Below, in pieces: positions 12,421-27,720 of a stretch of 52,914 nt of DNA. Below the pieces are notes generated by a model. That model did not search any database. It worked only from the letters and a program-made list of their open reading frames with translations, and was not told the DNA's origin. Position 1 is the first letter of the stretch; each line of letters opens with the position of its first letter. The stretch is from IMG/VR virus record IMGVR_UViG_3300009506_000044, positions 1 to 52,914 of that record, one strand, 5' to 3'. The DNA is from a virus. Its lineage: Duplodnaviria > Caudoviricetes. The position numbers and the translations under genes were made by a program.

Positions 12421-12847
12421 GACGACAATCAAATTCGAAAAAGGCAAGATCCTCAAACGTGTCGGAGACGCGAATTACCGGTCTCTTGGACAGGCCGGCG
12501 CTTCTGTACGCAAAATAGCTCAATACTCAATTCGAACACAACCCGCCCGCAAGAAAAAAACAAAACGACGTCGCAAACGCAAAATAAAATATTCCCTGCC
12601 AGGAAAACCTCCCTTTACGCGCGGGCAAAAACGTCTGCGCAAATCCATTATTTACAGCGTCAACCGACAAAAAGAGCACGTCAGAATCGGTCCATCTCAC
12701 GATATTATCGGCGAGGTCGGCGCATTGCATGAGGTCGGCGGAATTTTCTACGGGCGTCATTATACGCCGCGTCCGTATATGGCGCCGGCGCTGAAACAGG
12801 CCATCCCGAGACTCCCTAAATTATGGAGGGCCGCGTTCCGTGGATAG
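12407..12847 (+). CDS. Tail completion / HK97 gp10-like protein
   Basis: Basic protein; LHEVGG...PRPYMAPAL motif. Confidence 0.65.
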   Translation: MVKIETTIKFEKGKILKRVGDANYRSLGQAGASVRKIAQYSIRTQPARKKKTKRRRKRKIKYSLPGKPPFTRGQKRLRKSIIYSVNRQKEHVRIGPSHDIIGEVGALHEVGGIFYGRHYTPRPYMAPALKQAIPRLPKLWRAAFRG

Positions 12848-15215
12848 CAAGGTAGGCAGAGTCTACGTCGAAATATCGTCTCGCGACAAACGGTTGCGCG
12901 CAGGGTTGGCGCGCGCGCAGGCGCGTCTGCGTGCGTTCGGTGCAATCGGTCGCCAGGTAAGCGCACGTGTGGCTGGAGCGATGACTGCCGTATCGAATTC
13001 CGTTGCCTCCGTCGCCAGTCGCGCCAAGGCGGCCGGCGGGGCTTTGCTGAAAATCGCGGGCATCGCAGGCGCCGGCCTGGGGCTGGCCGCGAAAAGGTTC
13101 GCCTCTTTCGACGACGCGATGCGCGCGGTGCTGGCCATTACCAGCGCGAATGAGAAGGAATTCGCCGCGCTGGAGCAACAGGCCCGGCAGTTAGGCGCGA
13201 CCACCAGTTACACCGCGAAAGAAGCCGCCGAGGGCATGGTAGAACTCGGCCGCGCAGGGTTTAAGGCTCGCGAAATAATGGCCTCTATACCTGGCGTGCT
13301 CGACCTTGCCAGGGCCACGGGCGTTGAGATTTCAGAAGCTGCAACGATTGCCGGGAACACGCTGCGCGCGTTCGACCTCGATGCCTCAAAGATGACCGAG
13401 GTCGTGGATATTCTAACCGCAACTGCGAACAATAGCGCGCAGGGCCTGGGTGATCTTGGCGAGTCCCTGAAATACGTTGCCCCGATTGCGAAGGCCACGG
13501 GTGAGGACTTGAGGTCAACCGCCGCCGCCCTGGGAGTACTGGCCAACCAGGGTATCAAGGGCAGCGCGGCAGGTACGGCCCTGGCGCGGGCCTATAAGAA
13601 TTTGGCAAAACAAGACGTGGCCGACAAATTGAAGGTCAAGCTTGGTATCGAAGTGGCCGACACCGAAGGAAACCTGCGACCGGTTGCCGATATCATCGCG
13701 GAAATCGGACGAAAAACAAAAGACCTCGGAAGCCAAAAAAGGATTGCAATTTTTGACGAAATTTTTGGGCGTGGCGCCGTTGCATCAATCGTGCTGGCAA
13801 ACGCGAAAGCCGTTGATTCTATGTCGCAAAAGCTTGAGAATGTACAGGGAACGGCTAGAAAAACAGCAAAAATAATGGATAGTGGACTTGGTGGATCGTT
13901 CCGCATCCTATTTTCGGCTATTGACGATGTGATTATCAGTGTTGGCAAAGCATTGGAGCCAGTCCTGACGGAATGGGCAAATGCCGTGAAAAATGCAGGT
14001 AATCAACTATCCTCATTCATCCAGAAAAATCCTGAACTTGTGCAATCTATCGGGAATTTAGTGCCTATCGTTGCTGGAATTGGAGTCGGATTTGTGGCAC
14101 TTGGAACTGCGCTTGGTCCTGTATCCGTAGCGTTTGGTATCGTCGCCTCCGCCGTTTCCGTTGTCTCAGGTGTTATCGGGATCGCAACGATTGCGGTGTC
14201 TGGGCTGCTAACCGGAATTGGTCTGCTTTTGACGCCGATAGGACTTCTGACGGCTGGATTCGGGGTGCTGGCCACTACCGTCGCGGTTTCAGCGTCTGAT
14301 ACCAGCGAGTCTATTTTTGACCTCAGTGGAGATTTCAGCGGCCTGGCCGACGTGGCTAAATCAGCGTTTTATGGCATTGCTGACGCATTAAAGTCTGGCG
14401 ACATCGAAACGGCAGCAAAAATAATGTTTGCCGGCCTAAAAGTCGCATGGAAATACGGAGTTGCCGCGCTTCGTGAAATTTGGAGCAGGTTTCTAAATGC
14501 GATAGAACAGACCGGGGCGACCATAAAATCTACGATTGAGACTGCCGCATACGACGCCGCCGTGACTGTAGACAATATCATATCAGCCGTAACCCCTGAT
14601 TCGCTTTACGAGCCGAACGTGTTGGCAAAAATGAGATCCAAGGCGTTACTGCGAATCGTAGAGGAAAACAAACCGACAACCAAAATCGACCTCGGGGGTT
14701 ACGAGGAAGCAAAAAAAGCCAAACAGGAATTGCAAAAACTGCTGTCTGAGCAGGAGTTGAAACGCAAACGCGCCGAACAGGAGGCGTTGAGAAAAGCTGC
14801 TGAGAAAACCGGTGGGAAACTCGCAGGTAAAAGAGGCGAGAAAAAAGATGAACTGGTGAACCGCCAGAAGCAGTTGGAGAAAAAACTTGCTGATCAAGAG
14901 TTAAATCGCAAACGTGTAGATATTGCAGCCATTGGTAAAGTCGTCAGTAACGCGGGAAAACAAGCTATTGATTCGGTTAAGGGCATGGTAGATAGCGGCA
15001 AAATTTCAGACCTGCAGAAAAAACTTTCTGGTGCCGCCGAATCTGCGTTGTCGCGTCCGATTTTCGGTGGGTTCGAAACGTTTTCCCTGGCTGGATTTCA
15101 GGCTGCGAGCGGCACCGGTCAGGAACGTAAACTCGGTGAGATACTGACCGAAAACAAGACGCAAACGCGTTACCTTAAGACAATCAGCGAAGACAGCGGG
15201 GAAACATTCTCATGA
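12840..15215 (+). CDS. Tape measure protein (TP901 family)
   Basis: LGATTSYTAKEAAEGMVELGRAGF, LANQGIKGSAAGTAL. Confidence 0.93.
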   Translation: MDSKVGRVYVEISSRDKRLRAGLARAQARLRAFGAIGRQVSARVAGAMTAVSNSVASVASRAKAAGGALLKIAGIAGAGLGLAAKRFASFDDAMRAVLAITSANEKEFAALEQQARQLGATTSYTAKEAAEGMVELGRAGFKAREIMASIPGVLDLARATGVEISEAATIAGNTLRAFDLDASKMTEVVDILTATANNSAQGLGDLGESLKYVAPIAKATGEDLRSTAAALGVLANQGIKGSAAGTALARAYKNLAKQDVADKLKVKLGIEVADTEGNLRPVADIIAEIGRKTKDLGSQKRIAIFDEIFGRGAVASIVLANAKAVDSMSQKLENVQGTARKTAKIMDSGLGGSFRILFSAIDDVIISVGKALEPVLTEWANAVKNAGNQLSSFIQKNPELVQSIGNLVPIVAGIGVGFVALGTALGPVSVAFGIVASAVSVVSGVIGIATIAVSGLLTGIGLLLTPIGLLTAGFGVLATTVAVSASDTSESIFDLSGDFSGLADVAKSAFYGIADALKSGDIETAAKIMFAGLKVAWKYGVAALREIWSRFLNAIEQTGATIKSTIETAAYDAAVTVDNIISAVTPDSLYEPNVLAKMRSKALLRIVEENKPTTKIDLGGYEEAKKAKQELQKLLSEQELKRKRAEQEALRKAAEKTGGKLAGKRGEKKDELVNRQKQLEKKLADQELNRKRVDIAAIGKVVSNAGKQAIDSVKGMVDSGKISDLQKKLSGAAESALSRPIFGGFETFSLAGFQAASGTGQERKLGEILTENKTQTRYLKTISEDSGETFS

Positions 15216-16018
15216 CAACCGTATCGGAAGCTTTTATTCGCAACACTCAGGAAATGAATTCGAACGGTGATTATATTGCCGTGGAGCGCGTGTATTTCGT
15301 TTTCGCGGCCGACGATGAGGAAGAGGCTTTCACCGCACTGTACGATGCTATACCTGCAACGTATCAAGGCGTTAGGTTGTCTAAGGTCGCGCTAGATGAG
15401 CGTATCAACGAAACGACGTGGAAATTCTCGGTAACGTATCAAAATACGGCATCCTCCGCGGAAGGCGGAACCACTCCCAGCAGCACGACGTCATTCGACA
15501 CAACCGGTGGAACGCAAACAATTTATCAATCGAAATATACATCAGCGTATCCGTCGTCGGCTCCAGATCTCAACAACGCGATTGGCTGGAATGGCGAGAG
15601 CGTTAACGGCGTCGATATCGTTGTGCCACGTTACACCTGGACGGAGACGCATTACTTTACATCGTGTTCGACAACTTACCTACTTACGCTCGCGCAATGC
15701 ACTGGATGCGTCAATGCGTCTACATTCCGCGGATTCGCTGGCGGAGAGGTGCTATTCATGGGGGCGCGCGGACAGCAGCAGTCCACAGATGATTATGCGT
15801 TATGGGAGGTCCAATTTGTTTTTCAATATTCTCAAAATGAGGAATTCCAGTATCAGGTTGGCGGCATAACTGTCGGCGGGAAAAACGGTTGGAACTATCA
15901 ATGGGTTGAATACGAAGAGGACCTGGACACAACCGAAAAGAAAATAATCGCGGTGCCGAAATATGTGCGCATCGAACGTGTTTACGATGAGATAGCGTTC
16001 TCTCAGCTAGGGATTTAG
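15212..16018 (+). CDS. Putative distal tail protein
   Basis: Directly after the tape measure gene; VNASTFRGFAGGEVLFMG. Confidence 0.55.
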   Translation: MTTVSEAFIRNTQEMNSNGDYIAVERVYFVFAADDEEEAFTALYDAIPATYQGVRLSKVALDERINETTWKFSVTYQNTASSAEGGTTPSSTTSFDTTGGTQTIYQSKYTSAYPSSAPDLNNAIGWNGESVNGVDIVVPRYTWTETHYFTSCSTTYLLTLAQCTGCVNASTFRGFAGGEVLFMGARGQQQSTDDYALWEVQFVFQYSQNEEFQYQVGGITVGGKNGWNYQWVEYEEDLDTTEKKIIAVPKYVRIERVYDEIAFSQLGI

Positions 16019-16021
16019 GAG

Positions 16022-16822
16022 ATGAAAAAAGTACTAGCCGGCGACAAGCTGAAAATTCCCGCGAAGACGTTCAACACGTTCGTTGACGCCGGCCAGTATT
16101 ATCTGGACCGCCAGGGCGACCTGAAGGTCAGTCCTGCTGGAAATAATCTGCGTTCGGCGATGGTTCGCGTCTACAATAATTCCGGCGCTGATCAGGATAT
16201 GTTCGCCGTGCTGGCAATCACCGGCGTATCGATCTCTCAATCCGACAACGAAAACGAATTCATGCATCGCGGTCCTGTGCTCACTGTAGATCTGTGGAGC
16301 AACGTAACAGCGGCAGACCGGTACAAAACGACGTTCGTAATCCTGCAGCAGCCCGTCAAGCAGGAGAAAATCGCGCGCGCCAAGGCGTTCGGTGTGTCGC
16401 AAGTGCAGATAAACGTTACGAATGCGTCGCACCCCTACGCAAAACCGTCCGCGTCATCCGCAATACTCGACAGCGCATGGGCCGGACCGACGCGGATACT
16501 GTACCAGGAGAGCGGGACAGGGACAAAATGGGCCGTCGTGCATTTTCAGGAAATCCCGTGGATTAATTGGGAGCCCACAACACCGTATGAGATCGATCGA
16601 TCTGATAGTGCCGACGATGCCAAGGTGTGGAACCCGAAAAATGGTGTGCCGGCGAATTGGGATACGCTGTACGACGGTGTAAAACTAACGTGGCGCACGT
16701 TGCGATACGATGATAGCGCGGGTACATTAGAGTATGTCGATCAGATTTTTCAATGGCTGACACCGTTTGCGCCTGTGATTGAGGCGGTGACACCAGCCAC
16801 CGCAGACACTGGAGAATGCTAA
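16022..16822 (+). CDS. Putative tail tip protein
   Basis: Synteny; beta-rich. Confidence 0.5.
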   Translation: MKKVLAGDKLKIPAKTFNTFVDAGQYYLDRQGDLKVSPAGNNLRSAMVRVYNNSGADQDMFAVLAITGVSISQSDNENEFMHRGPVLTVDLWSNVTAADRYKTTFVILQQPVKQEKIARAKAFGVSQVQINVTNASHPYAKPSASSAILDSAWAGPTRILYQESGTGTKWAVVHFQEIPWINWEPTTPYEIDRSDSADDAKVWNPKNGVPANWDTLYDGVKLTWRTLRYDDSAGTLEYVDQIFQWLTPFAPVIEAVTPATADTGEC

Positions 16823-18697
16823 GTGGCGGCCGGAGAAACACTATGGTTTCAAGACGATAAACTGGTAGTGGACGGCGACGGCAGGCCGTACATGTGTTCG
16901 TCGTGTCCGTGCGATTCCGATCTGGGAAACCTGTATCCTAGCAATATGCCGACGACCACATACCCGGTTATATTCGAACAGGCGTCAGGGTCAAAGTGGG
17001 TGAACGACACGCTCGATATCAGCCCCACTGGAAGCTGGCATAACTACGAGCCCGGCATGTGTGGCTATCTCAGGGGGGACCAAGACCAGTATTGGATTGT
17101 CCGGCGCACGTCTACCGGGGCGGTGCCGCATGTCTACTTTTGGAACGGTAGTAGCTGGACGGAATATTCGACCGGGTTGAGTTACCCGTCGGGCTGGCAG
17201 GCCCTGTCAGCATATCGGTATCTGTGCCCCCGATTCGACGATCCCGGCAAGCCGGCCCTGATGATGAAACACACCAGCGGCGAGATAATTCAGCATTGGA
17301 CTGGATCGACGTGGACGACGGACGCGACACACTCGCTTGTATACGGGTCTTACGTCGCATCGTATTACGGGTCAGGGGTGTATTGTTTCTTGAACAACAA
17401 CGGAACATTGCTTGATATTCGTGGCGTGTGTGATGGAGTGGAATTCTGGTTCGACAATACGGATTCGTTGCCGCTCAACGAGTACCCAATGTCCGGAAAT
17501 TTCTCGCTCATGTATTACACCGGATACCCGCTTAGCTCCAGGGGTTACAGCGAATTTCTGGTCCACTACAGGTACACCCGTGCGAGTGACAGCCAGGTGC
17601 GCGACGGCATAGCGATCTGCCGCGTTACCGATCCTGGCGGCGGCCCGGTGATGTCCGTGTCGGGGCCGCAATTCGAATTGCAATCTACGGCCCCACAGAA
17701 GGTGGCGCCCACGAACGCCTGGCAATTTTTTTATGTGAATGACGAATATTGGGCGTTGTGCGATGCGGTTTACACCGGGTCAAAAGAATTGCGCAACCTT
17801 ACTCTGGGCGGTATCTGGAAGGCGAACATCAACAACCGGACGGACGCATGCGAATCTCGCAATCGATATATTTTGATGGACGGCAGCAAACCGGAGGTGT
17901 ACGACTGCGTGTCAGACGCGATGGTCAGCAACACACTCTACAACGATTTTACGGTCGGCCAGCAGCATATCGAGCCGCCGCCGGCAGCCAGGGCGATCCT
18001 GAAACACAGCAGGCCCGTTGCGGTGCAGAGCCTGCCGAAAGTGCAGGCTTATTTGCGCCGCGCCGCAGAGGGCCGCGGCAACGTCGGGCGCCTGCTGGAC
18101 CGGGCGGAAAACTCCAGCCAGCGGTGGCCGGATCTACACCGCGCAATTCGAATAGAACGCAGGAAATTCCTGAAGGACGGCACTCCGCCGGACTTCGAAA
18201 AATTACTTACAGGAGGACGAATAGAAGTGGAAGAAAACAAGAAAAAACAACTGTGGCAGAAAGTTCGCGAGGGCATCGACGCCCTGAAAGAGTTGCGCGC
18301 CGACGCAGAGAAAACGCGCGACGTCGAGGACGTGGTCACCGATCCGAGCAACTGGCCGATAATGCTGGAGGGGCTCAAGGTGCTGTTGAGCTTTTTCGGC
18401 AGCATTTTCGGCAGCATCTTCGGAGTGCGCACCGCCCCGAGCGCCAGCGTAGAGGGGCAGCCGCGCGGCTTCTGGGACACGATACAGCAGATATGGGCGC
18501 TGCTTAAGGCGATCTACGACTTCCTGCAGAAAAATTCGCTCACGGCAGAGGAATTCAAGGCCGTTATAAACCAGGCGAAGGCTGATATCAGAGATGACGT
18601 GGCCGCCAGTATTCCTGGGCAACTGCGCAGAATGGGCGCGAAGATTGAAACAAAAATGACTTTCGAGGACGCTGACCCGGAAAACGGCGAGGAATGA
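16823..18697 (+). CDS. Putative tail-associated protein with amphipathic helical C-terminus
   Basis: W/Y-rich beta N-terminus (WNGSSW, WTGSTW), then a charged and amphipathic C-terminal third. Confidence 0.5.
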   Translation: MAAGETLWFQDDKLVVDGDGRPYMCSSCPCDSDLGNLYPSNMPTTTYPVIFEQASGSKWVNDTLDISPTGSWHNYEPGMCGYLRGDQDQYWIVRRTSTGAVPHVYFWNGSSWTEYSTGLSYPSGWQALSAYRYLCPRFDDPGKPALMMKHTSGEIIQHWTGSTWTTDATHSLVYGSYVASYYGSGVYCFLNNNGTLLDIRGVCDGVEFWFDNTDSLPLNEYPMSGNFSLMYYTGYPLSSRGYSEFLVHYRYTRASDSQVRDGIAICRVTDPGGGPVMSVSGPQFELQSTAPQKVAPTNAWQFFYVNDEYWALCDAVYTGSKELRNLTLGGIWKANINNRTDACESRNRYILMDGSKPEVYDCVSDAMVSNTLYNDFTVGQQHIEPPPAARAILKHSRPVAVQSLPKVQAYLRRAAEGRGNVGRLLDRAENSSQRWPDLHRAIRIERRKFLKDGTPPDFEKLLTGGRIEVEENKKKQLWQKVREGIDALKELRADAEKTRDVEDVVTDPSNWPIMLEGLKVLLSFFGSIFGSIFGVRTAPSASVEGQPRGFWDTIQQIWALLKAIYDFLQKNSLTAEEFKAVINQAKADIRDDVAASIPGQLRRMGAKIETKMTFEDADPENGEE

Positions 18698-18700
18698 GCC

Positions 18701-18904
18701 GTGGAATTTGACGAATATGTGGAAAAATTTGTGGCACCCAGAGATAAGAAGCGCGCAAAAAAATGGGGCCAACAGAGCGGCATGAAGCGGCATGTGGTCG
18801 TGGCGAAACGTCAGGCCGTGGTTGACGTGCTGCTGAAATTGAAAGGTAAGGTTGAAGGTGCAAGAGAACGAAATAGCCGGACCGCCGACGCCGGATCAAT
18901 TTGA
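18701..18904 (+). CDS. Hypothetical basic protein
   Basis: ORF in operon context. Confidence 0.45.
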   Translation: MEFDEYVEKFVAPRDKKRAKKWGQQSGMKRHVVVAKRQAVVDVLLKLKGKVEGARERNSRTADAGSI

Positions 18905-19250
18905 GTTTTCGGATACTGCCATAATCCGCTCTCTCGACGAAGCGGATCGCGATGAACCGGCGGAAAAGCCGGCAAAGGAATATGCGGTGCAACGGGATTT
19001 GCTGGCCGGTGTGTACGAGGTTTTTTCGTCCTCATTCGTCGTTCTTTTGACCAATACAATCCTTAGCACCGGCCTGTTTTTTTCTGTGGTGGTCCTTACC
19101 CTGTGGAGCGATTGCCCGCAGTTGATATGGGGCGGCTTCCTTATATTCTGCTTGGTATCTCCGTTGGCGCTGTGCGTCATGAACGTTCGGCTGCTGGTGT
19201 CGATATCGAAAAAACAATCGTGCGGACGCATGACAATCCGGGAGTTTTGA
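18852..19250 (+). CDS. Two-TM membrane protein (holin-like topology possible)
   Basis: Two hydrophobic segments and a basic C-terminus. Confidence 0.55.
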   Translation: MKVQENEIAGPPTPDQFEFSDTAIIRSLDEADRDEPAEKPAKEYAVQRDLLAGVYEVFSSSFVVLLTNTILSTGLFFSVVVLTLWSDCPQLIWGGFLIFCLVSPLALCVMNVRLLVSISKKQSCGRMTIREF

Positions 19251-19251
19251 C

Positions 19252-20085
19252 GTGCTGCTAAAAAAAACCGTATTCAAGGACGGCAGGTTTGAGAATTACC
19301 CGGACATCCCGCTGAAAAACATGGCCACGGTTGACCTGTGTGATGGCGTTTCAGTGGCTCGCGAAGGAGAGTGTTGCCGTATTTACTCCGGGTCCGTGAT
19401 CCGCATCAACAACCAGGAACACGTTGGCGAAAAGATCCTGAGCAATCTCATGGTTATCGAGGCCGGTGGTGCAATTTTCGTCTTCGAAGACGAGGCGGCG
19501 GAGAAAGCCTTTCTGGACATGCCGACGCGGACGGAGGAAAAAGTTGAGCGCATTAGCGATGTGGAGTCAAGGTATTCTCCGGCATCCATCCAGGCATTGA
19601 AACAACGTCACTACAAGCTGTTTTGCGGTAACGGGAAAATGCTTAAAACCAAGCACGGTATAGCCGAGCGCATCGTCAGATACGCTACAATCAAGCTCAA
19701 CTGGGAACGCGCTTGCGTGATGGAGATAATCGAAAAAAGTGGGAAAAGCATCGCGGCATCTGGGAGATTCAAGTTAGACATACCGAAAGCGTTAGTTTTC
19801 CCGGTGTGGCGAGAGAAAAAAGCGCAGAAATATGTTCGTAATGACGCAGAGGAAAAGGGCAAGCATGCCACCATGTCTATAGTTGAGAATGACGTTGGAT
19901 GCGCCATGATATCTCCTTTTATGTACGGACTAAACAATAGAATCGTGGCAATACTTTACGCCGACACTCCAGCGGAAGCGATAGAAGATGCGGCCTATTT
20001 CCTGCTTGATCACGTTTGCCGAGAGATAACACCCAAGTTTGTTGACCTGCTAGACTTCCCGGTCCTCAAGGAAATCGACGTATGA
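19252..20085 (+). CDS. Degenerate FHA + GAF-like protein
   Basis: N-terminal beta region ending INNQ...IEAGGAIFVFE (FHA-like); C-terminal SIV...CAMISPF...IVAILYADT (GAF-like). Confidence 0.55.
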   Translation: MLLKKTVFKDGRFENYPDIPLKNMATVDLCDGVSVAREGECCRIYSGSVIRINNQEHVGEKILSNLMVIEAGGAIFVFEDEAAEKAFLDMPTRTEEKVERISDVESRYSPASIQALKQRHYKLFCGNGKMLKTKHGIAERIVRYATIKLNWERACVMEIIEKSGKSIAASGRFKLDIPKALVFPVWREKKAQKYVRNDAEEKGKHATMSIVENDVGCAMISPFMYGLNNRIVAILYADTPAEAIEDAAYFLLDHVCREITPKFVDLLDFPVLKEIDV

Positions 20086-21164
20086 GGAAGAAAAAACTTG
20101 ATCATCCAGGCATGACGCACGCTCAGATAATACAACGATATTGGGACTCCAGAAAAGAAATAGACGAAGGCGTCCTGGTATTTAACGACAAGGAATGGTT
20201 GGAAGACGTTGTTTTTTCGTGCAACAAAAACTTGCAGGCTAGGCTTTTCCTGTGGTGCGGTGGGGAGGCGTTCGTTATTCTGGCTTATGACTGGTGCTTG
20301 AACAGGTTATGTGTTGTGAAAATACCCCGGCCGGACTTGCCAGAGGTAGCCCAGAAAAGATTTGTAAGGTCAGCCTGCACCCTGGCAAGCCTGAAAAACG
20401 GCTACTTTCCGAAGGTATACTATCTCTCTCCGAATCCCTTTTTCCTCTTGCTCGACTGGACGATCGGTGAGACATTCCGAGCGTGGTCGCTATCGAAATA
20501 CTACGACAGGGATGCGGCAATACAGTATTTTCGGGACGTCTTGATCGGCGCGGCATTGCTGCACGCGGATGGCGTCGTGCATCGCGATATCAGGCCGGAC
20601 AACATCCTGATAACGAAGGACGGCAAAATCAAGATCATCGATTTCGGCATGGCAAAAACAGAGGAATCGCGCAGGCTCACAACCGTTAATGCCCTGGGGA
20701 CATGGGCCTACAGCCCCCCCGAACAACTTACGCACGCTGGCGACGTTGACCAGGCGTCAGCGGATGTCTGGTCGCTGGGGCTGTTGTTCCATTGGGGGAT
20801 AACCAAACGCGAGAAAACAAAAAAAGAGCAGGTGTTCGACCCGTTGACGCTGTTGGATTTCGGGTTGCCGACGCAGGCGTGCGGATGGTTCGGACGTTCT
20901 CAGGCCATCGACCCGCGCGAACGGTTCCAGGATGCCTCCGAAATGCTGGAGGAGTACAACAGGATATTCCCGCCGCCGCTGCCGACGAACGTTCGCGCTA
21001 CGGGTGACGACCTGTATTCGCTGGTGGAGACACTCATGGTCTTGCTGGGCGGGGACATTTTCTATGCCGAGCTTTTCACCAGCAGCTTTCTGAGCGCGAA
21101 ACAACTGCGCCGATTGTGGAACGCCGCGGCCGATAGGAGGGCAATGCAATGCCAATCTTCATAA
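20082..21164 (+). CDS. Hanks-type Ser/Thr protein kinase
   Basis: VVKI, HRDIRPDNI, DFG, YSPPEQ, DVWSLG. Confidence 0.93.
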   Translation: MRKKKLDHPGMTHAQIIQRYWDSRKEIDEGVLVFNDKEWLEDVVFSCNKNLQARLFLWCGGEAFVILAYDWCLNRLCVVKIPRPDLPEVAQKRFVRSACTLASLKNGYFPKVYYLSPNPFFLLLDWTIGETFRAWSLSKYYDRDAAIQYFRDVLIGAALLHADGVVHRDIRPDNILITKDGKIKIIDFGMAKTEESRRLTTVNALGTWAYSPPEQLTHAGDVDQASADVWSLGLLFHWGITKREKTKKEQVFDPLTLLDFGLPTQACGWFGRSQAIDPRERFQDASEMLEEYNRIFPPPLPTNVRATGDDLYSLVETLMVLLGGDIFYAELFTSSFLSAKQLRRLWNAAADRRAMQCQSS

Positions 21165-21937
21165 TTCGCAACGAAAAACCCGGCAAAAAAACGCCGCCTC
21201 CAATCACGGCGATCATGGCCAGGCCCGAGGAAACCGGGGCAATTCTGATCGCGATAAATAAATATCAGGCTCCCGGTCTGGACCTGCGCGGGTGTATCAA
21301 CGACTCGCGGCTAATGGAATCTGTGTTCGTCGATCAATTCGGCATTCCGCCAGCAAACCTGAAAATCCTGCGAAACGAACTTGCCACGCGGAAAAATATC
21401 CTCAATGCCGCCAGAGCCTGGGCGAAGAAATTCCGCTGGCTCGTGCCGCACTACAGCGGACACAGGGCTAGGGTGCCATCCAGCACCGAAGCGGATTATT
21501 TTCAGGGGGCATTCGTCCCGCACGACTACAGGCCGGACGGCACGAACCTGGTGTACGATTGGGAATTCAAGGACGCTCTCCAGGAGGCCGAGAAATGCTG
21601 GCTGATCATAGACGGTTGTTTCGCCGGCGAGATGGCCACCAGAGCGGACGGCGTATTGGTGCGCTCAATAGCGGTCCCGCCACAGCCCCTGACGCGGCAC
21701 AACGGTAATTTTCGGGCGTGTTTCGTCGAGTTGTTGGGCGGCAACGAAACCGAGCCGGTGATTGAAAAACCAATCGAGGGCCGCCAGTACGGGGTATTCT
21801 CGTGGTGGCTGGCGAAACTCTGGCGCGAGAATCCCGGCGCCCCGCTGTCAGTGCTGAAACAGATGCTCGCCGAAAAAATCCACGAACAACACCCGGAGTT
21901 TTACGGCGCCGATGGACAATTTTTGCAGATCGCATAG
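21149..21937 (+). CDS. Metacaspase/orthocaspase (peptidase C14)
   Basis: IAINKY...LRGCIND, ATRKNIL, catalytic dyad HYSGH and IDGC. Confidence 0.88.
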   Translation: MPIFIIRNEKPGKKTPPPITAIMARPEETGAILIAINKYQAPGLDLRGCINDSRLMESVFVDQFGIPPANLKILRNELATRKNILNAARAWAKKFRWLVPHYSGHRARVPSSTEADYFQGAFVPHDYRPDGTNLVYDWEFKDALQEAEKCWLIIDGCFAGEMATRADGVLVRSIAVPPQPLTRHNGNFRACFVELLGGNETEPVIEKPIEGRQYGVFSWWLAKLWRENPGAPLSVLKQMLAEKIHEQHPEFYGADGQFLQIA

Positions 21938-22019
21938 CAACTTTTTTTGTTGCAGTTGTTATATATCAACGACTTACGACAAGTTTCGACTCGAAACTCG
22001 CTAATGGAGGGCCTCGAAT

Positions 22020-24008
22020 ATGGCCGACGCGACCTACAGTATGACCCCGTCAGGGCTTCTTTTTGACGTGGCATTCGGGGCTGCTGAAACGACGAAAACG
22101 ATAGAATTCACGCCGGGCGCATTCCCGAACAATACCTGCCCGGTGATCTATCAAGGATTCTGTAAGATTCCTAACTGGACGAACTCGGTGACGCTGGATG
22201 TCCTGTTCCAGGACGCTACAGAAACTACGATGACATGGGGCAACGAGGATACCGCGTTGACGAAAAACGGTACACGCACGCTCGTTTTCCCAAGCAACGG
22301 AATACCGATTCAGCGTGCGACAAACCTCGTGCTAACCCTAAACGGCGCCCCTGGTGGCACTGGTGGAACGGTAACGTTAGCTCTGGTATGCAAAGGAAAC
22401 GCCGGCGGCGGGAATGTCAGCATCGGTGGCGACGTTGTCCTCGATGCGGACATCAACGTCGCGCAATTCGGCGGCGTGGCCGTCCAGATGGACGACACCG
22501 ACAAGCCAGCGTTTTCCATGTACGGGAAAGCCACGGGTGGTGCATCTGGCGATACACCTCCGCTGCTGGAAACCGACGGCAAAAATATGGCCAGCCTATA
22601 CGCCTACAACGCGGCGGCTGGCGATACCGCACTAACGGCGCAGGCGACCGGTGAGCAAAACATAAATCTCGGCATGATTGCCGGTGTTGCGCCCCAGGTA
22701 GACGATACTGATAAGCTGGGTGTTTCCGTCTATGGCAAAAATGCAGCAGCGGGAGATACCGAAGTAGCTGTAGAATCGGGTGGAGAAACAAAGACATCTC
22801 TATATGCGTATAATGCGGCGGCCGCTGACGTTGCCGTTATTGCCGACGCTGCAGGACAGCTCCAAATCGATGTACAAAAGATAGACGGTGCAGACCCGCA
22901 GCTTGACAACACAAACAAATTAGGCGTGTCCTTGTATGCTAAATCTGTGGCCGCCGGTGACAAAGAGGTACTGGTAGATTCGGACGGACACGTACAGGTT
23001 GATGTATTAAGCACAACTGGCACTGGAGATGTAAACGTCGCGCAGTTCGGTGGGGTAAACGTCCAGCTAGACGATACGGACAAACCGGCAATGAGCATCT
23101 ACGGAAAGAGCGTAGCGTCTGGTGACACAGAAATCAACGTTGAAACCGGCGGAGAGACGAAAGTCTCGCTATACGCTTACAACGCCGCCGCCGCAGATAC
23201 CGCATTGACCGCCCAGGCCACTGGTGAACAGAACGTAAACACCGCGATGATAGCTGGTGTTGCGCCAACAATGGACAACACCAGCTATTTGGGAATCTCT
23301 CTGCATGCGAAAAACGTTGCCGCTGGAGATGTCGCAGTACAAGCTGATGCCGCTGGACAGATTCAAATAGACGTGCAAAAGATCGATGGGCAAGACCCAC
23401 AGATGGATAGCACGAACCGTATCGGAGTATCTCTATATGGCAAGAATGCTGCCGCTGGTGATACAGAGGTACATGTAGACGCCGCTGGAGACGTACAAGT
23501 TGACGTGCTGTCCGATGCAACCGCCGCGACACGTGACGGATACCTCGCAACGTTAGCCGGGGCCGTGTCAGGATCTGAGTTGCAGGTCGATATCGTCGCG
23601 GATGCGACCGCCGCGACACGTGATGGACATCTTGCAACGATTGCGGGGGCCGTATCAGGGTCGGAAATGCAAATCGATATTGTTTCGACCGCGCTTCTTT
23701 CTCCCATCACCACGACCCAGGCCATTATCGACCTGCCGACGAACGCGCAAAATCCATCCGAGATCGATTGCAGTGCGTCGAGTGTGCATTACATCGAGTG
23801 CTACTCGGAGGTGGAATTCCAATACTGTTTTGCCGCCGATCAGGCAACGGCGAACACCAATATCGGGGCTGACACGACGCGAGGAAAATACCCCGCCGGT
23901 ACAGGCACAATATGCGTCAGCGGCGACACGACGAACAAATTTTACGTGCGCGCAAATGACGCGAGCGGCCTGGTAGACGGGTTCTCCTACCACTTCAGGG
24001 GGGCATAA
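22020..24008 (+). CDS. Repetitive fibre/decoration-like structural protein
   Basis: Internal repeats NVAQFGGV, DDTDK, GVSLYGKNAAAGDTEV, ATAATRDG. Confidence 0.6.
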   Translation: MADATYSMTPSGLLFDVAFGAAETTKTIEFTPGAFPNNTCPVIYQGFCKIPNWTNSVTLDVLFQDATETTMTWGNEDTALTKNGTRTLVFPSNGIPIQRATNLVLTLNGAPGGTGGTVTLALVCKGNAGGGNVSIGGDVVLDADINVAQFGGVAVQMDDTDKPAFSMYGKATGGASGDTPPLLETDGKNMASLYAYNAAAGDTALTAQATGEQNINLGMIAGVAPQVDDTDKLGVSVYGKNAAAGDTEVAVESGGETKTSLYAYNAAAADVAVIADAAGQLQIDVQKIDGADPQLDNTNKLGVSLYAKSVAAGDKEVLVDSDGHVQVDVLSTTGTGDVNVAQFGGVNVQLDDTDKPAMSIYGKSVASGDTEINVETGGETKVSLYAYNAAAADTALTAQATGEQNVNTAMIAGVAPTMDNTSYLGISLHAKNVAAGDVAVQADAAGQIQIDVQKIDGQDPQMDSTNRIGVSLYGKNAAAGDTEVHVDAAGDVQVDVLSDATAATRDGYLATLAGAVSGSELQVDIVADATAATRDGHLATIAGAVSGSEMQIDIVSTALLSPITTTQAIIDLPTNAQNPSEIDCSASSVHYIECYSEVEFQYCFAADQATANTNIGADTTRGKYPAGTGTICVSGDTTNKFYVRANDASGLVDGFSYHFRGA

Positions 24009-24010
24009 CG

Positions 24011-24970
24011 ATGGGATGGACACCAAGCACAACGATCCCTACGGACACGATTTCAACGGATGAGATTGCCGCGTACTCCGCCGCCGCTCTGACTCTGAAG
24101 GGCCGGCAGGCGGATGGCGTGGGATGCGTCGGGGTGATAACCGACACGGAAAATACGTTCACGCAAGGGAAATTGCTTTCGATCAGGAACAATACAGCCG
24201 AGAAAGCTTATGTAGATTACGCAGGAAGAATTTTTTCTACGTCTGACGGGGATGGCACGACGCCCGCTCTCGTTTTCGGGAGCGCAAATGTCAACGGATT
24301 TTACCACGCTTCGAATACAATAAAGGCAGTCGCTAACGGAACGACAATAGGAACTTTCAGCAACACAAATTTTCAAATAAACGGCACGCTGCGTCAGCAA
24401 ACAGCAACGGTACCGTTAAAATTGGAGGGGCAGGACGCTAGCGACGGTAGTGCGAAAGCAATCCAGCTTGGCAATGCAAATGCCTTGACGACAGCAGGGG
24501 ACAGGCTGTTGTCTATTTTTAGCGACAGTTTCTCTACGGAGCGGGCCTACGTGAATTATTTGGGAGGAGCCCTGTTTTCCTCCGCAATCGTCGTTAACGA
24601 AGACGGAAACGACGTTGACACGAGGATCGAGGGCAACGGAGACACAAGCCTTCTATATGTTGACGCTGGAGCTGATTCGGTCGGCGTGGGGATCGCCGCG
24701 CCTCTGGCGAAATTGCACGTCGATCAGAGCGTATCCGACGCGGCAATCCCGGTGCTGACGGTAGACCAGGCCGACGTAAGCGAGGAATTCATAAAATTTA
24801 TCGGGACCAGTGCAGGCGACAATACACAATCTCTAGTAGATGCGGCGGATCTAACCACTCCCGGAAGCATCGTCGGTTGGTTGAGGATATACGTGCAAGA
24901 CGACGCTGGCGCCGGGGATATCGCCGATGGGGTTTATTTCGTGCCTTTCTATTCTACCCCGACGGCATAA
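24011..24970 (+). CDS. Tail fibre-like protein
   Basis: LYVDAGADSVGVGIAAPLAKLHV fibre motif. Confidence 0.6.
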   Translation: MGWTPSTTIPTDTISTDEIAAYSAAALTLKGRQADGVGCVGVITDTENTFTQGKLLSIRNNTAEKAYVDYAGRIFSTSDGDGTTPALVFGSANVNGFYHASNTIKAVANGTTIGTFSNTNFQINGTLRQQTATVPLKLEGQDASDGSAKAIQLGNANALTTAGDRLLSIFSDSFSTERAYVNYLGGALFSSAIVVNEDGNDVDTRIEGNGDTSLLYVDAGADSVGVGIAAPLAKLHVDQSVSDAAIPVLTVDQADVSEEFIKFIGTSAGDNTQSLVDAADLTTPGSIVGWLRIYVQDDAGAGDIADGVYFVPFYSTPTA

Positions 24971-24982
24971 AAGGAGAGAAAT

Positions 24983-25321
24983 ATGGCATTCCTGATGACG
25001 GTAACAATCTCTGAGGACATCACTATAACAAATGCGTTCTGGAAACTCGGTGAGGTCAATTTTAATCTTGCGCTTAATACGGGCTCGCTCGTATATTATA
25101 TCTACAAAGATCAGGCGTCTGCAACTGCTCTGAAGCGCAACCGCACCTGCCGTCTAGCCCTGGCGACAGCGGAAGAAGAATCTGGGGGTGTAACATACGG
25201 GCTCAATATTTCGGACGTGTGGGGCAAAACGGTGTCGCAGATAGACACGTTGATGCGCACGAAAACAGTGCAATTTGAAAACAACACCTACGATTTGACA
25301 GGGGCGAGCGATGTCACATAG
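24983..25321 (+). CDS. Hypothetical (fibre-associated) protein
   Basis: RBS AAGGAG; follows the fibre gene. Confidence 0.55.
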   Translation: MAFLMTVTISEDITITNAFWKLGEVNFNLALNTGSLVYYIYKDQASATALKRNRTCRLALATAEEESGGVTYGLNISDVWGKTVSQIDTLMRTKTVQFENNTYDLTGASDVT

Positions 25322-25517
25322 TGATGAGATTTTGAAATTGAAGTCGAAGGGATACGAATATTATTGCGAGGTGACAAGATTGACACAGGAACAGCAGAGG
25401 GCAGAGGCGCGCAAGGCTCAGTGCGTTCGTGCCCTCCAGGAGATCGAAAAACAGATCGCAGACATAGAAGCGCAGGAAAAGCGCAACCCGGACCGGGCAG
25501 AGTGCCCAGCCCGATAA
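25311..25517 (+). CDS. Small coiled-coil protein
   Basis: Heptad-like sequence. Confidence 0.5.
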   Translation: MSHSDEILKLKSKGYEYYCEVTRLTQEQQRAEARKAQCVRALQEIEKQIADIEAQEKRNPDRAECPAR

Positions 25518-26147: not shown

Positions 26148-26178
26148 GCCGGCCTGGCGCACAGCAGGCCGGTTTTTT
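26148..26178 (+). terminator. Intrinsic terminator of the late operon
   Basis: CCGGCCTG/CAGGCCGG stem followed by T6. Confidence 0.8.
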
Positions 26179-26188
26179 CATTGCGGGA

Positions 26189-26234
26189 AAAAGTAGACAC
26201 GGTGTCTACTTTTCGAAAGTAGACACCGTGTCTA
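26189..26234. repeat. Nested palindrome
   Basis: Perfect 19-bp inverted repeat (26194-26212 / 26216-26234); each arm contains TAGACAC-N-GTGTCTA. Confidence 0.9.
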
Positions 26235-26291: not shown

Positions 26292-26837
26292 CTAGTCATC
26301 TCGATTGTGCGAGACGCCTAATGGCGGATGTGCAGGTAGGTGCACATCCAGCCGGTTGTAAAGGAAACCGGCTCTACCTTCGAGTCTAACCAGTCGGTCT
26401 GGGGACTCGAATAGAAAAGTAGTTCCGTCCTTTCTGCGGACGGTTCCAATGGCCATGCGGCCTCCTAAGCGGCGGTCTTTATCCGTCTGGTTGTGGATCT
26501 CTCGGATGTCGAACCACATCCGCACCGGCCTGCGCCCATCAATGATCTCCTGGATCTGGCACATGGCCCTCCAGGAGATATAATCTAAAACCTGAGTGTC
26601 CTCGCATGGTGGTTCAATCCCATACGACTCCGCATTAAGCGCCGTCACCGGATCGAGCGTCCAGTGTCCCGGCAGCTCGTCGAGTTCATGGTGAGCCAGC
26701 AGGCAATCGATGGTCTCCTGCTTCGATCCGATGAGCACGTCGTCGTTCCCATCGTTTCCGGTATCCAGCGCCCAAACCTCCTGGCCCTGCATGATTGCAC
26801 GGGCGACTTCCCCACGAGTATGCGACTTGAAATTCAT
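26292..26837 (-). CDS. Hypothetical early protein
   Basis: RBS AAGGGAG; last gene of the leftward operon. Confidence 0.65.
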   Translation of the reverse strand: MNFKSHTRGEVARAIMQGQEVWALDTGNDGNDDVLIGSKQETIDCLLAHHELDELPGHWTLDPVTALNAESYGIEPPCEDTQVLDYISWRAMCQIQEIIDGRRPVRMWFDIREIHNQTDKDRRLGGRMAIGTVRRKDGTTFLFESPDRLVRLEGRAGFLYNRLDVHLPAHPPLGVSHNRDD

Positions 26838-26903
26838 GATATTCTCCCTTCATCTTATATACGCGGCTGCCTGAGATTTTCTGACAGCCGCGCGGAAAAA
26901 AAT

Positions 26904-27278
26904 CTACCGGTCCCACGGCGACGGGACGAACGCCGCCGCCAGCCGCTGCAAACGTGCGCAGGCGACCACCAGCGCATCGTACTCCTGTCGTGTCTGGCAG
27001 GTGATCAGATCACCTCGGTGGGCTACCGAGGTGATCCATTTATGGTACGCCTCACCTGAGCCTTCCGTTTCAGGCGGAGCATAATCGGCCGCCACATCCC
27101 AGCAACGACATCCGTTTTCGTAGTATTCTACGAAAAACAGAGCCCGTTCTGGGCTATCCGGGACTCGCTTTTCCTCCCAGGGCGAGAAAAGCGCGTTCTG
27201 TACTAGATCCACGAAATTTTCGTGGATATCCTCGCCGTCCTTCGACATTTTTTGCGTTTCGTGTAGCGATACCATCAT
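26904..27278 (-). CDS. Hypothetical early protein
   Basis: Start at MMVSLH after an AGGAAGGA RBS. Confidence 0.7.
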   Translation of the reverse strand: MMVSLHETQKMSKDGEDIHENFVDLVQNALFSPWEEKRVPDSPERALFFVEYYENGCRCWDVAADYAPPETEGSGEAYHKWITSVAHRGDLITCQTRQEYDALVVACARLQRLAAAFVPSPWDR

Positions 27279-27313
27279 TAGTTCCTTCCTGGGGGCCGAA
27301 GCCCCCGTAAAAA

Positions 27314-27679
27314 TTACTTTAATGATTTGTAATAAATTTCTTCCAATTGCTTCCAATTCCACCCGCCACACATTCTTAAATCAAATTGAATTCGGCGTGG
27401 GCCTTCTTCAAAATCCGCTCCGTCAAAAATTTCCTGTAGCCATTCATTTTTGAATGGCCCTTCCAAAATCAGTAAATCTATTGGTCTCCCACCGTTTTGC
27501 CCCCAGGTCAATTCGTAGAGGTATCGATATACCTCATTTTTTATAGTTCCGAAGGGAGAGGTTAGTTTCACCTCGAACCCTTCACCAACCAAAAAATGTT
27601 CAGTGCGGGATTTATCTCCCGCTTCAATGTATCTTGCTTCATGCCGCAGCATGATAATACTGTTGCTGTCTTCCATCAT
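27314..27679 (-). CDS. Hypothetical early protein
   Basis: Bounded by two hairpin repeats. Confidence 0.7.
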   Translation of the reverse strand: MMEDSNSIIMLRHEARYIEAGDKSRTEHFLVGEGFEVKLTSPFGTIKNEVYRYLYELTWGQNGGRPIDLLILEGPFKNEWLQEIFDGADFEEGPRRIQFDLRMCGGWNWKQLEEIYYKSLK

Positions 27680-27720
27680 CAATTCCTTTCTGGGGGCCGG
27701 CCCCCGTTGTGGTTATTGCT

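Follow-up and report, generated by a model that had tools for sequence, protein, structure and literature searches.

A kinase and caspase cassette with an FHA-GAF protein and a predicted membrane protein in the tail-gene block of a marine-sediment siphophage

What are a Ser/Thr kinase, a caspase-like protease, an FHA-GAF protein and a membrane protein doing among the tail genes of a siphophage? An earlier note, made from the sequence alone, had read these genes as an undescribed phospho-proteolytic module for non-canonical lysis, host reprogramming or superinfection defence. The window, by which we mean the whole stretch of DNA analyzed (52,914 nucleotides), is IMG/VR record IMGVR_UViG_3300009506_000044, a linear, ~84% complete record of a lambda-like siphophage. 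Genome GC is 53%, 94 nt of the record precede the large terminase gene (terL), and no small terminase was recognized in it. Pfam and PHROGs identified an AntA antirepressor and HTH proteins of the repressor type, and the phage looks temperate.

Layout and expression of the cassette

The features of the locus are as follows.

12840-15215: tape-measure protein (TMP)
18113-18697 (start approximate), + strand: C-terminal ~195 residues of a 624-aa ORF (16823-18697), possible sixth conserved element
18701-18904, + strand: small ORF (67 aa, basic) that runs into the start of gene A
18852-19250, + strand: gene A, 132 aa, two-TM protein; alternative start, GTG at 18858
19252-20085, + strand: gene B, 277 aa, FHA-fold domain (1-81) and GAF-fold domain (~107-270)
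20082-21164, + strand: gene C, 360 aa, PknB-like Hanks-type Ser/Thr kinase
21149-21937, + strand: gene D, 262 aa, metacaspase-like C14 peptidase, p20-like (31-166) and then p10-like region
21937-21953, + strand: weak 5-bp hairpin from the terminator-like scan, in the 82 nt that separate gene D from the fibre-like gene (22020)

Genes A to D form a tightly coupled cassette on the + strand (18852-21937). A single base separates A from B; the next two junctions are overlaps, of 4 nt (ATGA) for B and C and of 16 nt for C and D. A purine-rich RBS-like stretch precedes each of B, C and D. The cassette lies 3' of the tape-measure and distal-tail genes and 5' of fibre-like genes. Its earlier placement between tail-tip and fibre genes holds in part. 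A TMP upstream is supported by Pfam, whereas the three ORFs after it gave zero family matches, so their tail-tip label reflects position only, and the fibre-like gene (a 319-aa ORF starting at 22020) has a HylP-like Pfam match that is sub-threshold. The same gene order (small ORF, A, B, C, D, fibre) was found in one divergent viral contig, L002, where the cassette likewise follows the TMP and distal-tail genes.

A scan for sigma-70-like promoters found 7 in the cassette versus 7.2 expected by chance, and none stands out; a lysogen may express the cassette from promoters of other types. No convincing + strand terminator was detected within the cassette by the terminator-like scan. The 21937-21953 hairpin is probably not a real terminator, and strong hairpins are located at 26148-26234. 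With neither a promoter nor a terminator of its own detected, the cassette is probably co-transcribed with the late tail genes. The phage carries a canonical S49 head protease, and D is therefore not the head protease.

Domains and conserved residues of the encoded proteins

A is predicted to be an inner-membrane protein, with an acidic N-terminal tail, TM segments at residues ~62-82 and 90-119 and a short basic C terminus; these two hydrophobic segments bear out its earlier description as a membrane protein. Among the small late-region proteins on the coding strand, it alone is multi-TM. Its homolog in L002 is 32% identical (E 5.8e-12), with conservation concentrated in TM1, and the acidic tail is poorly conserved. 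The 67-aa ORF also has a counterpart in L002 (9378-9566; 32% identity, E 9.6e-9), and its overlap with gene A is arranged in the same way in both phages. Neither protein matched any family in Pfam, PHROG, PADLOC or NCBIfam. Further upstream, the 18113-18697 region resembles a separate 148-aa ORF of L002 (8931-9377; 24.5% identity over 106 aa, E 3.8e-5). Its product has one weakly hydrophobic segment, and the L002 ORF also has a hydrophobic segment.

B had been called FHA/GAF-like. Both folds are backed by an AF2 model (9-sequence alignment, pLDDT 85.3) and by structure matches, though not by HMMs, as B matched nothing in Pfam (including FHA and GAF), PHROG, PADLOC or NCBIfam at E<=0.1. Residues 1-81 matched the Ki67 FHA domain (2aff) with a Z-score of 10.3 and an rmsd of 1.8 Å over 77 aligned residues, and many GAF domains matched residues ~107-270 at Z 12-14.3. 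Foldseek returned PAS-GAF proteins and the PDE2A GAF domain at E ~4e-6. For the GAF domain it also returned weak matches (E 3e-3 to 9e-3) to proteins annotated as T4-type holins, which we treat as a lead only. The family comprises 9 members (the query and 8 relatives) among 1.84 billion representatives. FHA domains bind phosphothreonine through a Gly-Arg pair, a Ser-x-x-His motif and an Asn. The only invariant residues in the N-terminal domain of the 9 aligned sequences are Gly-59, Leu-63 and Ile-69, and mapping by eye found no conserved Arg, Ser, His or Asn column, which makes phospho-dependent binding by this domain doubtful. An NKFDE-type motif, the known ligand-binding motif of GAF domains, was not seen on reading the B sequence. 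As modeled, B is an adaptor joining an FHA fold that lacks the usual phosphopeptide signature to a GAF small-molecule-sensor fold.

Against Pfam Pkinase (PF00069; cut-off 31.7 bits) the kinase scored 89.1 bits (E 4.2e-25), and it matched phrog_2361 at 4.7e-31. Hanks kinases are recognized by a β3 Lys, the HRD Asp, a catalytic-loop Asn, the DFG Asp and an APE-like motif. The corresponding residues, Lys-80, His-167-Arg-168-Asp-169, Asn-174, Asp-187-Phe-188-Gly-189 and SPPE (Pro-213-Glu-214), are identical in all 5 orthologs, and the Gly-rich loop is reduced to GGEA. To judge by these motifs, the kinase is apparently active. The catalytic core spans ~57-295 and is flanked by conserved, family-specific extensions (1-55 and 297-360), the C-terminal one being kept across the 5 orthologs. 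The nearest solved structures are the kinase domains of Mycobacterium tuberculosis PknB, Staphylococcus aureus Stk1/PknB and Streptococcus pneumoniae StkP (E 1e-25 to 4e-29, profile positions ~48-293 only). C shares with these the ~240-residue catalytic core and its motifs. It differs from them in having no TM helix or PASTA repeats, in its extensions, which match nothing solved, and in being encoded by a phage within a tail operon. Among PADLOC models, which have no curated cut-off, the best match was PD-T4-6 (118.2 bits, E 1.3e-34), confined to the core at 57-295; others were mad6, MkoA and Stk2 (2.1e-20). All NCBIfam matches fell far below their own cut-offs.

D scored 39.7 bits for Peptidase_C14, where the cut-off is 21.4, and its L002 ortholog 64.6 bits; the PADLOC "caspase" model matched D at 2.1e-9. 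It is at most 28% identical to any sequence found. Among solved structures, plant metacaspase-4 comes closest (E 1.5e-10; the catalytic His and Cys align), with plant metacaspase-9 and yeast Yca1 also near; the ESM Atlas model of D has a pTM of 0.84. The His-Cys dyad is invariant in 8 of 8 aligned sequences (Ser-103-Gly-104-His-105 and Asp-155-x-Cys-157), as are Asp-52, in a C-x-N-D motif, and Asp-155, two residues before the Cys. According to the available part of the source, Asp95 and Asp211 in the pocket of TbMC2 give Arg/Lys specificity (PMC6426788). Asp-52 and Asp-155 sit at the motif positions of these two residues, a correspondence of motif spacing and not a residue-level alignment. D shares the dyad with the metacaspases and prokaryotic orthocaspases (C14B) and, judged by motif spacing, may share their pocket aspartates. 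Unlike them, it is a phage-encoded protein of only 262 aa with no prodomain, and the acidic "GDE..D..DE" loop of canonical relatives is replaced in both D and its L002 ortholog. The "QTS.D" motif is also altered in D. The C terminus aligns with the p10-like part of the relatives, Gly-215, Gln-247 and Pro-249 being invariant; in metacaspases the p10 region carries a calcium-site Asp. D has no hydrophobic segment, and no N-terminal signal peptide was visible on reading. The conserved residues suggest that the protease is apparently active. The ORFs, their overlaps, the HMM scores and the invariant residues together confirm the earlier claim of four coupled genes with intact kinase and caspase motifs.

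Distribution and inheritance with the tail module

Two loci, the window and L002, were read as DNA. The two phages have a common tail module (tail tube 53%, a 266-aa protein 46%, a 268-aa protein 39%, TMP 27%), whereas their head modules differ (portal 22%, no capsid match), from which it follows that the cassette travels with the tail genes. The cassette genes of the window have a GC content of 49-57% and a GC3 of 59-70% in a genome of 53% GC, and those of L002 have a GC content of 37-41% and a GC3 of 35-39% in a locus of 43% GC. Composition therefore follows each phage, which argues against recent acquisition and for an old resident of the tail module rather than a recent moron.

Judging by equal nucleotide sizes, B and the kinase appear to share two further contigs, of 25,144 and 5,028 nt. 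Together with the gene order of L002, this answers a check on co-occurrence that the earlier note had called for. The kinase is the slowest-evolving member of the cassette, with identities of 49% versus 26% for B in L002 and, on the contigs paired by size, 70% versus 46% (25,144 nt) and 40% versus 23% (5,028 nt).

Relatives of the caspase are encoded at 71 IMG/VR loci. The cassette was not found in the 70 other viral caspase contigs, which carry neither the kinase nor B. In the ESM Atlas, small stand-alone caspase-domain clusters (91, 73 and 65 members) are mostly viral, with Uroviricota commonest in two of the three, a lead only. Pattern scans of 185,579 species-representative genomes did not find the cassette. 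That the module was undescribed also stood up, as the deposited phages gave no ortholog of the cassette, and literature searches turned up no account of an operon that couples a kinase and a caspase to a membrane protein and an FHA-GAF adaptor. The known contigs number about ten, the sole listed sequencing run is from marine sediment, and no RNA run contained the sequence. In a small lineage of siphophages from marine sediment, we conclude, the tail-gene block has long housed the cassette as an accessory module.

Possible functions of the cassette

We tentatively favor, at somewhat less than even confidence, a sensor-kinase-protease switch at the cytoplasmic membrane that acts late in infection and changes the fate of the infected cell. 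The GAF domain of B would sense a ligand or a protein, and B would then tune or scaffold the kinase. Protease D would be gated by phosphorylation and would act on A or on envelope-associated proteins of the host. The outcome would be an altered fate of the infected cell, for example in the timing of death or lysis, or a block to the entry of further phages that share its tail type. Both the order of events and the substrates are what we infer. No phosphatase for resetting the switch was found by Pfam in the cassette or its neighbors in either phage. The retention of the cassette with the tail module, despite differing head genes and base composition, suggests that it is of use to the phage and is not random cargo. 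Exclusion genes are known within or next to tail genes, among them HK97 gp15, T5 llp and cor of phi80 and N15, all of them single small proteins without enzymes. Like these, the membrane protein gene of the cassette is co-inherited with tail or receptor-binding genes; unlike these, it belongs to a module of four or five genes with two enzymes.

It is possible, though rather unlikely, that the cassette is instead a prophage anti-phage (abortive infection) module of the lysogen, in which the kinase would sense an incoming phage, as kinases of the Stk2 or PD-T4-6 type reportedly do, and the caspase and membrane protein would kill or arrest the cell. An architecture of sensor, transducer, protease and TM protein is typical of defense systems, the phage looks temperate, and D and the kinase match the PADLOC models given above, the PD-T4-6-type kinase matches fitting this reading as well as they fit the switch. 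However, the kinase matches span only the generic core, and the top-scoring PD-T4-6 is reportedly a single-gene system in which a stand-alone kinase protects the cell from phage, whereas C belongs to a phage tail operon and is translationally coupled to its three partners. KKP, a prophage kinase module, confers defense according to the available part of one report (PMC11341870). It consists of two kinases and a phosphatase; the cassette has a single kinase, accompanied by an FHA-GAF protein, a TM protein and a caspase, and has no phosphatase. Caspases, kinases, FHA and GAF domains are effector and signaling domains of the NTP-dependent conflict systems (Kaur, Burroughs, Iyer, Aravind 2020, PMC7159879), which thus share the domain vocabulary of the cassette. 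As presented in the available text, those systems are chromosomal, occur in multicellular bacteria and are built on STAND, vWA-MoxR or GTPase NTPases; Pfam detected no NTPase domain in the cassette or its neighbors in either phage. The SAVED-CHAT/PCaspase system of type III-B CRISPR is, in the accessible portion of its description, a proteolytic cascade (10.1101/2023.06.23.546230), and the cassette differs from it in having a kinase and an FHA-GAF protein in place of CRISPR, SAVED and TPR components. Also against a defense role, the sigma-70-type scan found no promoter and the terminator-like scan no terminator of the cassette's own, no integrase was seen in the record, and the scans of species genomes were negative. 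The single conserved position with the tail module, the structural-gene-like divergence and the ameliorated composition are unlike hotspot defense cargo.

Host take-over or counter-defense is less probable still. Here the kinase and protease would modify or cleave host proteins, such as defense effectors triggered by structural proteins, and virions might package the enzymes and pass them through the tail into the next cell infected. Host shut-off by phage kinases is known, e.g. from T7 gp0.7. Such a role agrees with linkage to the tail module and with the probable expression of the cassette alongside the tail genes late in infection, and likewise with the 71 loci with caspase relatives and the mostly viral Atlas clusters. 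The strongest constraint falling on the kinase would be expected if it were fitted to conserved host targets, and non-structural genes between tail genes could encode virion cargo. However, a strongly hydrophobic two-TM protein and a GAF sensor would be unexpected as cargo, and the 70 viral caspase contigs without the kinase and B argue that phage caspases do not generally depend on them.

A gasdermin-like logic without a gasdermin is improbable. A GAF-sensed small molecule and the kinase would gate D, and D would clip the acidic N-terminal tail of A to yield a holin-like lesion. Bacterial gasdermin systems pair a caspase-like protease with a pore-forming effector, and here likewise a clan CD protease gene adjoins a membrane protein gene. 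Pfam found no gasdermin homolog in the cassette proteins or flanking ORFs, the matches being to kinase, caspase and the sub-threshold HylP-like family. If true, the time of host death would be set by phosphorylation and proteolysis and not by holin-antiholin titration, and the module would serve the phage as a clock of its own for lysis or cell death, one that suits its tail type and is passed on with it.

The earlier note had recognized no endolysin and had named non-canonical lysis among its readings. In the strongest version of that idea the cassette would replace the missing endolysin, A taking the part of the holin and D that of the lytic enzyme. We consider this very improbable. The observation itself was upheld by an HMM search: Pfam and PHROGs found no endolysin, holin or spanin family in 215 ORFs (all 212 of at least 75 aa in six frames and 3 shorter; one PHROG result covered 25 of 27 families). 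Lysis genes of lambda-like phages lie upstream of the terminase genes. As the record is ~84% complete and begins just upstream of terL, with no small terminase recognized, a missing endolysin cannot carry the argument. At 132 aa, with two TM segments and a basic tail at the C terminus, A is holin-like in size and topology, and the GAF domain of B gave the weak holin-annotated matches noted above. However, A matched no holin family in Pfam or PHROG, D lacks a hydrophobic segment or visible signal peptide, and the cassette stands before the fibre genes, not after them. We know of no peptidoglycan hydrolase with the clan CD (caspase) fold.

Least probable of all is a role in tail morphogenesis, in which the protease would mature the tape measure or a fibre and the kinase and FHA protein would regulate assembly, since, despite co-inheritance of the cassette with the surrounding tail gene block, the GAF sensor and membrane protein are left unexplained and we know of no siphophage that needs a kinase or caspase for tail assembly. 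There is a loose analogy to the type VI secretion system, which is phage-tail-like and under PpkA-Fha1 control; according to the available parts of the sources (PMC6082577, PMC8993066), an FHA protein and a Hanks kinase regulate its assembly.

The rarity of the cassette (about ten contigs) restricts its immediate reach. Phage kinases and phage caspase-like proteins are present in databases, and to the best of our knowledge almost none has been studied. Should the cassette prove to be a protease switch gated by phosphorylation, eukaryote-like kinase-to-caspase signaling would join the means by which phages control host fate, and the cassette would offer a compact four-gene system for studying the regulation of bacterial caspase homologs.

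Genome organization and the cassette genes

Pfam matches indicate that the phage is a lambda-like siphophage. The record is linear, with 52,914 bases and a CheckV completeness of ∼84%, and between 95 and ∼25.5 kb everything lies on the plus strand. This late block, closed by strong hairpins at 26148-26234, includes the following features.

Features of the late block
95-2521, plus strand: large terminase, gpA type (Pfam)
5024-6853, plus strand: portal, lambda family (Pfam)
6705-8051, plus strand: S49 (lambda gpC-like) head-maturation protease (Peptidase_S49, 2e-38; phrog_53, 1e-85)
8051-9755, plus strand: gpD-like decoration protein (sub-threshold match) and gpE-type capsid protein (Pfam)
12840-15215, plus strand: tape-measure protein (Pfam)
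18701-18904, plus strand: small basic ORF (67 aa) overlapping the start of A
18852-19250, plus strand: A, 132-aa protein with two transmembrane segments
19252-20085, plus strand: B, 277-aa protein with FHA and GAF folds
20082-21164, plus strand: C, 360-aa Hanks kinase
21149-21937, plus strand: D, 262-aa C14 peptidase ("caspase")

The last ∼150 nt of the portal ORF also belong to the S49 protease gene. Pfam also recognized head-tail joining and tail tube genes and the replication/recombination genes DnaB, RecT, and an SNF2-methylase fusion (32236-34428; a 730-aa SNF2/DEAD-type helicase fused to an N6/N4 DNA methylase domain). Identity of the portal reaches no more than 40%, with phages of many different hosts, so a host cannot be inferred.

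The four cassette ORFs, A to D, lie exactly where the earlier note had placed them. A and B are separated by one base, B and C share an ATGA, and C and D have 16 nt in common; a purine-rich stretch resembling a ribosome-binding site precedes each of B, C, and D. Inside the cassette neither a sigma-70-type promoter nor a convincing plus strand terminator was found.

Several other features of the record were observed. The hairpins at 26148-26234 (a 19-bp perfect stem on the minus strand and a 9-bp GC-rich one on the plus strand) form the border with three minus strand ORFs (26292-27682). Between the large terminase and portal genes, a TnpB/Cas12f-like gene (3591-4895; Cas12f1-like_TNB, 4.8e-18; OrfB_IS605) occupies a low-GC island (42% versus ∼50-57% in the flanks). 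With a minus strand ORF at 3094-3471, the 3000-5000 region looks like an IS605-family insertion within the packaging/head block. Toward the right end (39944-40657 and 49279-52181) lie genes for a protein with a PAPS-reductase domain, a 569-aa fusion of GT2 with radical SAM, and another glycosyltransferase-like protein, which may together modify nucleic acids or the cell surface. ARAGORN and Rfam agree on a single tRNA-Thr (anticodon TGT) at 46973-47044. Somewhere among 148 extra ORFs are a pentapeptide-repeat protein (1.4e-37), an AntA/Ant antirepressor (5e-25; phrog_5817, 2.5e-38), and a GT2 protein; the plus strand candidates among these ORFs lie mostly at 39-49 kb, a GC-rich region.

Properties of the cassette proteins

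The cassette is a coupled and conserved set of genes for two enzymes with intact catalytic residues, an adaptor with FHA and GAF folds, and a protein with two transmembrane segments. Its parts belong to known families, namely Hanks kinases, C14 peptidases, and the FHA and GAF folds.

C matched Pkinase with 89.1 bits (cut-off 31.7) and phrog_2361, "serine-threonine kinase", at 4.7e-31. Among solved structures its core is closest to the kinase domains of PknB, Stk1, and StkP, and neither its N- nor its C-terminal extension has a match there. In the five kinase orthologs the ∼60-residue C-terminal extension is largely invariant and the N-terminal one partly so. D matched C14 peptidases with 39.7 bits (cut-off 21.4) and, taken by itself, is closest to plant metacaspase-4 (E 1.5e-10), with which its His and Cys motifs line up. 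The catalytic motifs, among them those that had been read as intact, are kept: the β3 Lys (K80), HRD (167-169), N174, DFG (187-189), and SPPE are invariant in all five kinase orthologs, as are SGH (His105) and DxC (Cys157) in all eight caspase sequences, in which D52 and D155 are invariant too. Mapped by motif spacing, D52 and D155 fall at the motif positions of the metacaspase basic-P1 aspartates; a passage in PMC6426788, citing the TbMC2 structure, states that two aspartates accommodate basic P1 residues in metacaspases. Both D and its ortholog on a divergent viral contig, L002, lack the acidic loop of canonical relatives.

B had no match in Pfam, PHROGs, PADLOC, or NCBIfam, its profile found nothing below E 0.3 among PDB sequences, and a word-index search returned only B itself. 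An exhaustive HMMER search of 1.84 billion representatives yielded eight relatives, all of 259-298 aa. With the resulting nine-row alignment AlphaFold2 gave a confident model of pLDDT 85.3 and pTM 0.64; from the single sequence pLDDT was only 32.3. In this model the C-terminal domain (∼107-270) has a GAF fold, with VIA-align Z-scores of 12-14.3 to many GAF domains and Foldseek E values of about 4e-6 to PAS-GAF phytochromes and PDE2A. The N-terminal domain (1-81) matched the FHA domain of Ki67 (Z 10.3, root mean square deviation 1.8 Å over 77 residues). The description of B as "FHA/GAF-like" therefore holds for both folds. Only G59, L63, and I69, however, are invariant in the N-terminal domain across the nine-row alignment, so the usual phosphothreonine-binding residues are not conserved, and B may not bind phosphothreonine classically.

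In BFVD no viral protein matched both domains of B, TMq never exceeding 0.41; the matches include phage proteins labelled "GAF domain-containing" and, separately, one FHA protein of a cyanophage. Some proteins with a T4-type holin annotation match weakly (E 3e-3 to 9e-3), which is no more than a lead. Prediction of a complex between the kinase and B (score 0.00) gave no verdict and counts neither way. A has two hydrophobic helices, and its best ESM Atlas score was 0.88, to unnamed clusters, which is uninformative. A conserved Thr in its N-terminal tail was considered as an FHA ligand and dropped, as the tail does not align between the window and L002.

Conservation and distribution

L002 (24,726 nt; CheckV ∼29% complete) was detected among viral contigs with an alignment of the distant B subgroup, and it encodes a B relative. 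The earlier note had proposed that the four genes form a module, and they do occur together elsewhere: BLASTP of the L002 ORFs against the window showed the same gene order.

Identity between L002 and the window, in gene order
Tape-measure protein: 27%
269-aa ORF after it: 39%
267-aa ORF after it: 46%
Small ORF: 32%
A: 32%
B: 26%
Kinase C: 49%
Caspase D: 27%
Fibre-like protein: 43%

Ahead of the small ORF, L002 carries an additional five ORFs, one of 148 aa; none of the five encodes a signalling domain or a phosphatase. Elsewhere on L002 the tail tube is 53% and other tail proteins 32-38% identical to those of the window; the portals are 22% identical, and the window capsid protein is unmatched. 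Head blocks have been exchanged against tail blocks as modules. The cassette is co-inherited with tail genes: these are shared and the head genes differ, so in a mosaic genome it moves together with the tail module. Its base composition follows each phage (GC 49-57% and GC3 59-70% in the window, where the phage is 53% GC; 37-41% and 35-39% in L002, which is 43% GC), which argues for long residence in each lineage.

Further differences between the two were observed in flanking genes. The window 624-aa protein (16823-18697), encoded after the tape-measure gene, appears to be a fusion, with a C-terminal part that matches the separate 148-aa ORF of L002 (8931-9377), each with one hydrophobic segment, and a 125-aa stretch elsewhere that matches a 485-aa L002 ORF (4494-5951). 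The 662-aa fibre-like protein (22020-24008) has internal repeats, and its 399-aa L002 homolog (12690-13889) aligns to it as four separate segments of 41-58% identity. Neither flanking protein had a match in PDB sequence searches. At the expected position of a capsid or protease gene, L002 (also L076, record G001) has a 656-aa ORF.

Two kinase orthologs, 70 and 40% identical to C, come from contigs of 25,144 and 5,028 nt, and the B relatives P0021 and P0026 from contigs of likewise 25,144 and 5,028 nt; the equal sizes suggest B-kinase linkage on two more contigs. The first of these is a Logan contig and the second an ENA/Logan contig; other members of the B family come from Logan contigs of 51,026 and 22,329 nt and a JGI contig of 16,037 nt. 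In every pair compared, identity is much higher for the kinase than for B (49 versus 26% for L002, 70 versus 46%, and 40 versus 23%).

A caspase-profile scan of IMG/VR gave 71 loci, of which L003 is the L002 contig. B and kinase HMMs over the ORFs of all 72 loci (L002 plus the 71) matched only in L002/L003, apart from weak generic kinase matches in L064 (1.9e-9) and L067 (8.2e-7), and BLASTP found no other shared cassette genes in the 70 other viral caspase contigs. Among viral contigs the kinase alignment recovered L002 again and no other, and single-protein scans with D and with B found nothing. The close B trio alignment had no match in viral or metagenome contigs, nor the distant B subgroup alignment in genome or metagenome contigs, and no member of the cassette turned up when the species-genome collection was scanned by pattern. 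The single hit there, a 543-aa generic kinase found with the kinase alignment (L075, in a 37% GC Desulfovibrionaceae MAG), was rejected as unrelated; it has none of the partner genes. Against deposited phages, megablast of 15000-25500 gave no match; no kinase ortholog was found (28 records match at up to 34% identity, none reaching 80% coverage), and no caspase ortholog (one megaphage match, 24% identity). One sequencing run, a marine-sediment metagenome and possibly the source, is listed with this DNA; no RNA run is listed.

In the ESM Atlas, D is nearest to clusters of small caspase-domain proteins, mostly viral; phage caspases in themselves are therefore no rarity, and it is this combination that is rare. 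Many of the 71 caspase loci are giant-virus MAG records with GVMAG names (L011, L013, L018, L031, L042, L045, L051, L056, L058, L064, L068, and L071). Small caspase-domain proteins thus occur both in tailed phages and in Nucleocytoviricota, which agrees with the Atlas clusters.

Possible roles and relation to known systems

We tentatively favor a relay in which the GAF domain of B would act as sensor and signal through kinase C to protease D. Acting at the inner membrane, late in infection, it would either set the moment of host death or lysis or keep out additional phage that have the same type of tail. A module for abortive infection or defence, expressed by a lysogen, is a somewhat unlikely alternative: PADLOC matches and the domain vocabulary of conflict systems, as set out in a passage of PMC7159879, speak for it, but the conservation is deep and position-fixed, and the cassette is absent from pattern scans of bacterial genomes. 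We consider it improbable that the proteins are enzymes for taking over the host or countering its defences, which the virion might deliver.

Replacement of an endolysin is very improbable. The remark that no endolysin is recognizable proved correct within this record: no endolysin, holin, or spanin family was found in 215 ORFs (all 212 six-frame ORFs of 75 aa or longer and three shorter), scanned with Pfam throughout and with PHROGs for 186, the remaining 29 with Pfam only; for one PHROGs batch this covers the best 25 of 27 families. This absence is weak evidence for a lysis role, because at ∼84% the record is incomplete and starts 94 nt before the large terminase, with no small terminase recognized, and because D appears cytoplasmic, having no hydrophobic segment and no N-terminal signal peptide visible on reading. 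The lysis genes of lambda-like phages are located immediately upstream of those for terminase. Peptidoglycan hydrolases are not known to have a clan CD fold. A role in tail assembly is the least credible reading.

As assembled, the cassette matches none of the known systems considered. PD-T4-6 is a single-gene kinase system, whereas here the kinase has three partner genes. Gasdermin systems require a gasdermin, and the threonine-phosphorylation pathway of the T6SS a phosphatase and a membrane-bound kinase; the cassette matches neither. It also differs from KKP, described in PMC11341870 as two kinases and a phosphatase, and from the NTP-dependent conflict systems, which according to PMC7159879 require an NTPase. 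No description of such a phage cassette was found in the literature, supplementary files lying outside the scope of the search; one preprint (10.64898/2026.01.21.700432) names "metacaspase-1" as an auxiliary viral gene but gives no context for it.

The cassette is real and conserved, and it is apparently both functional and undescribed. Found so far on very few contigs, it brings known signalling and protease domains together in a new way.
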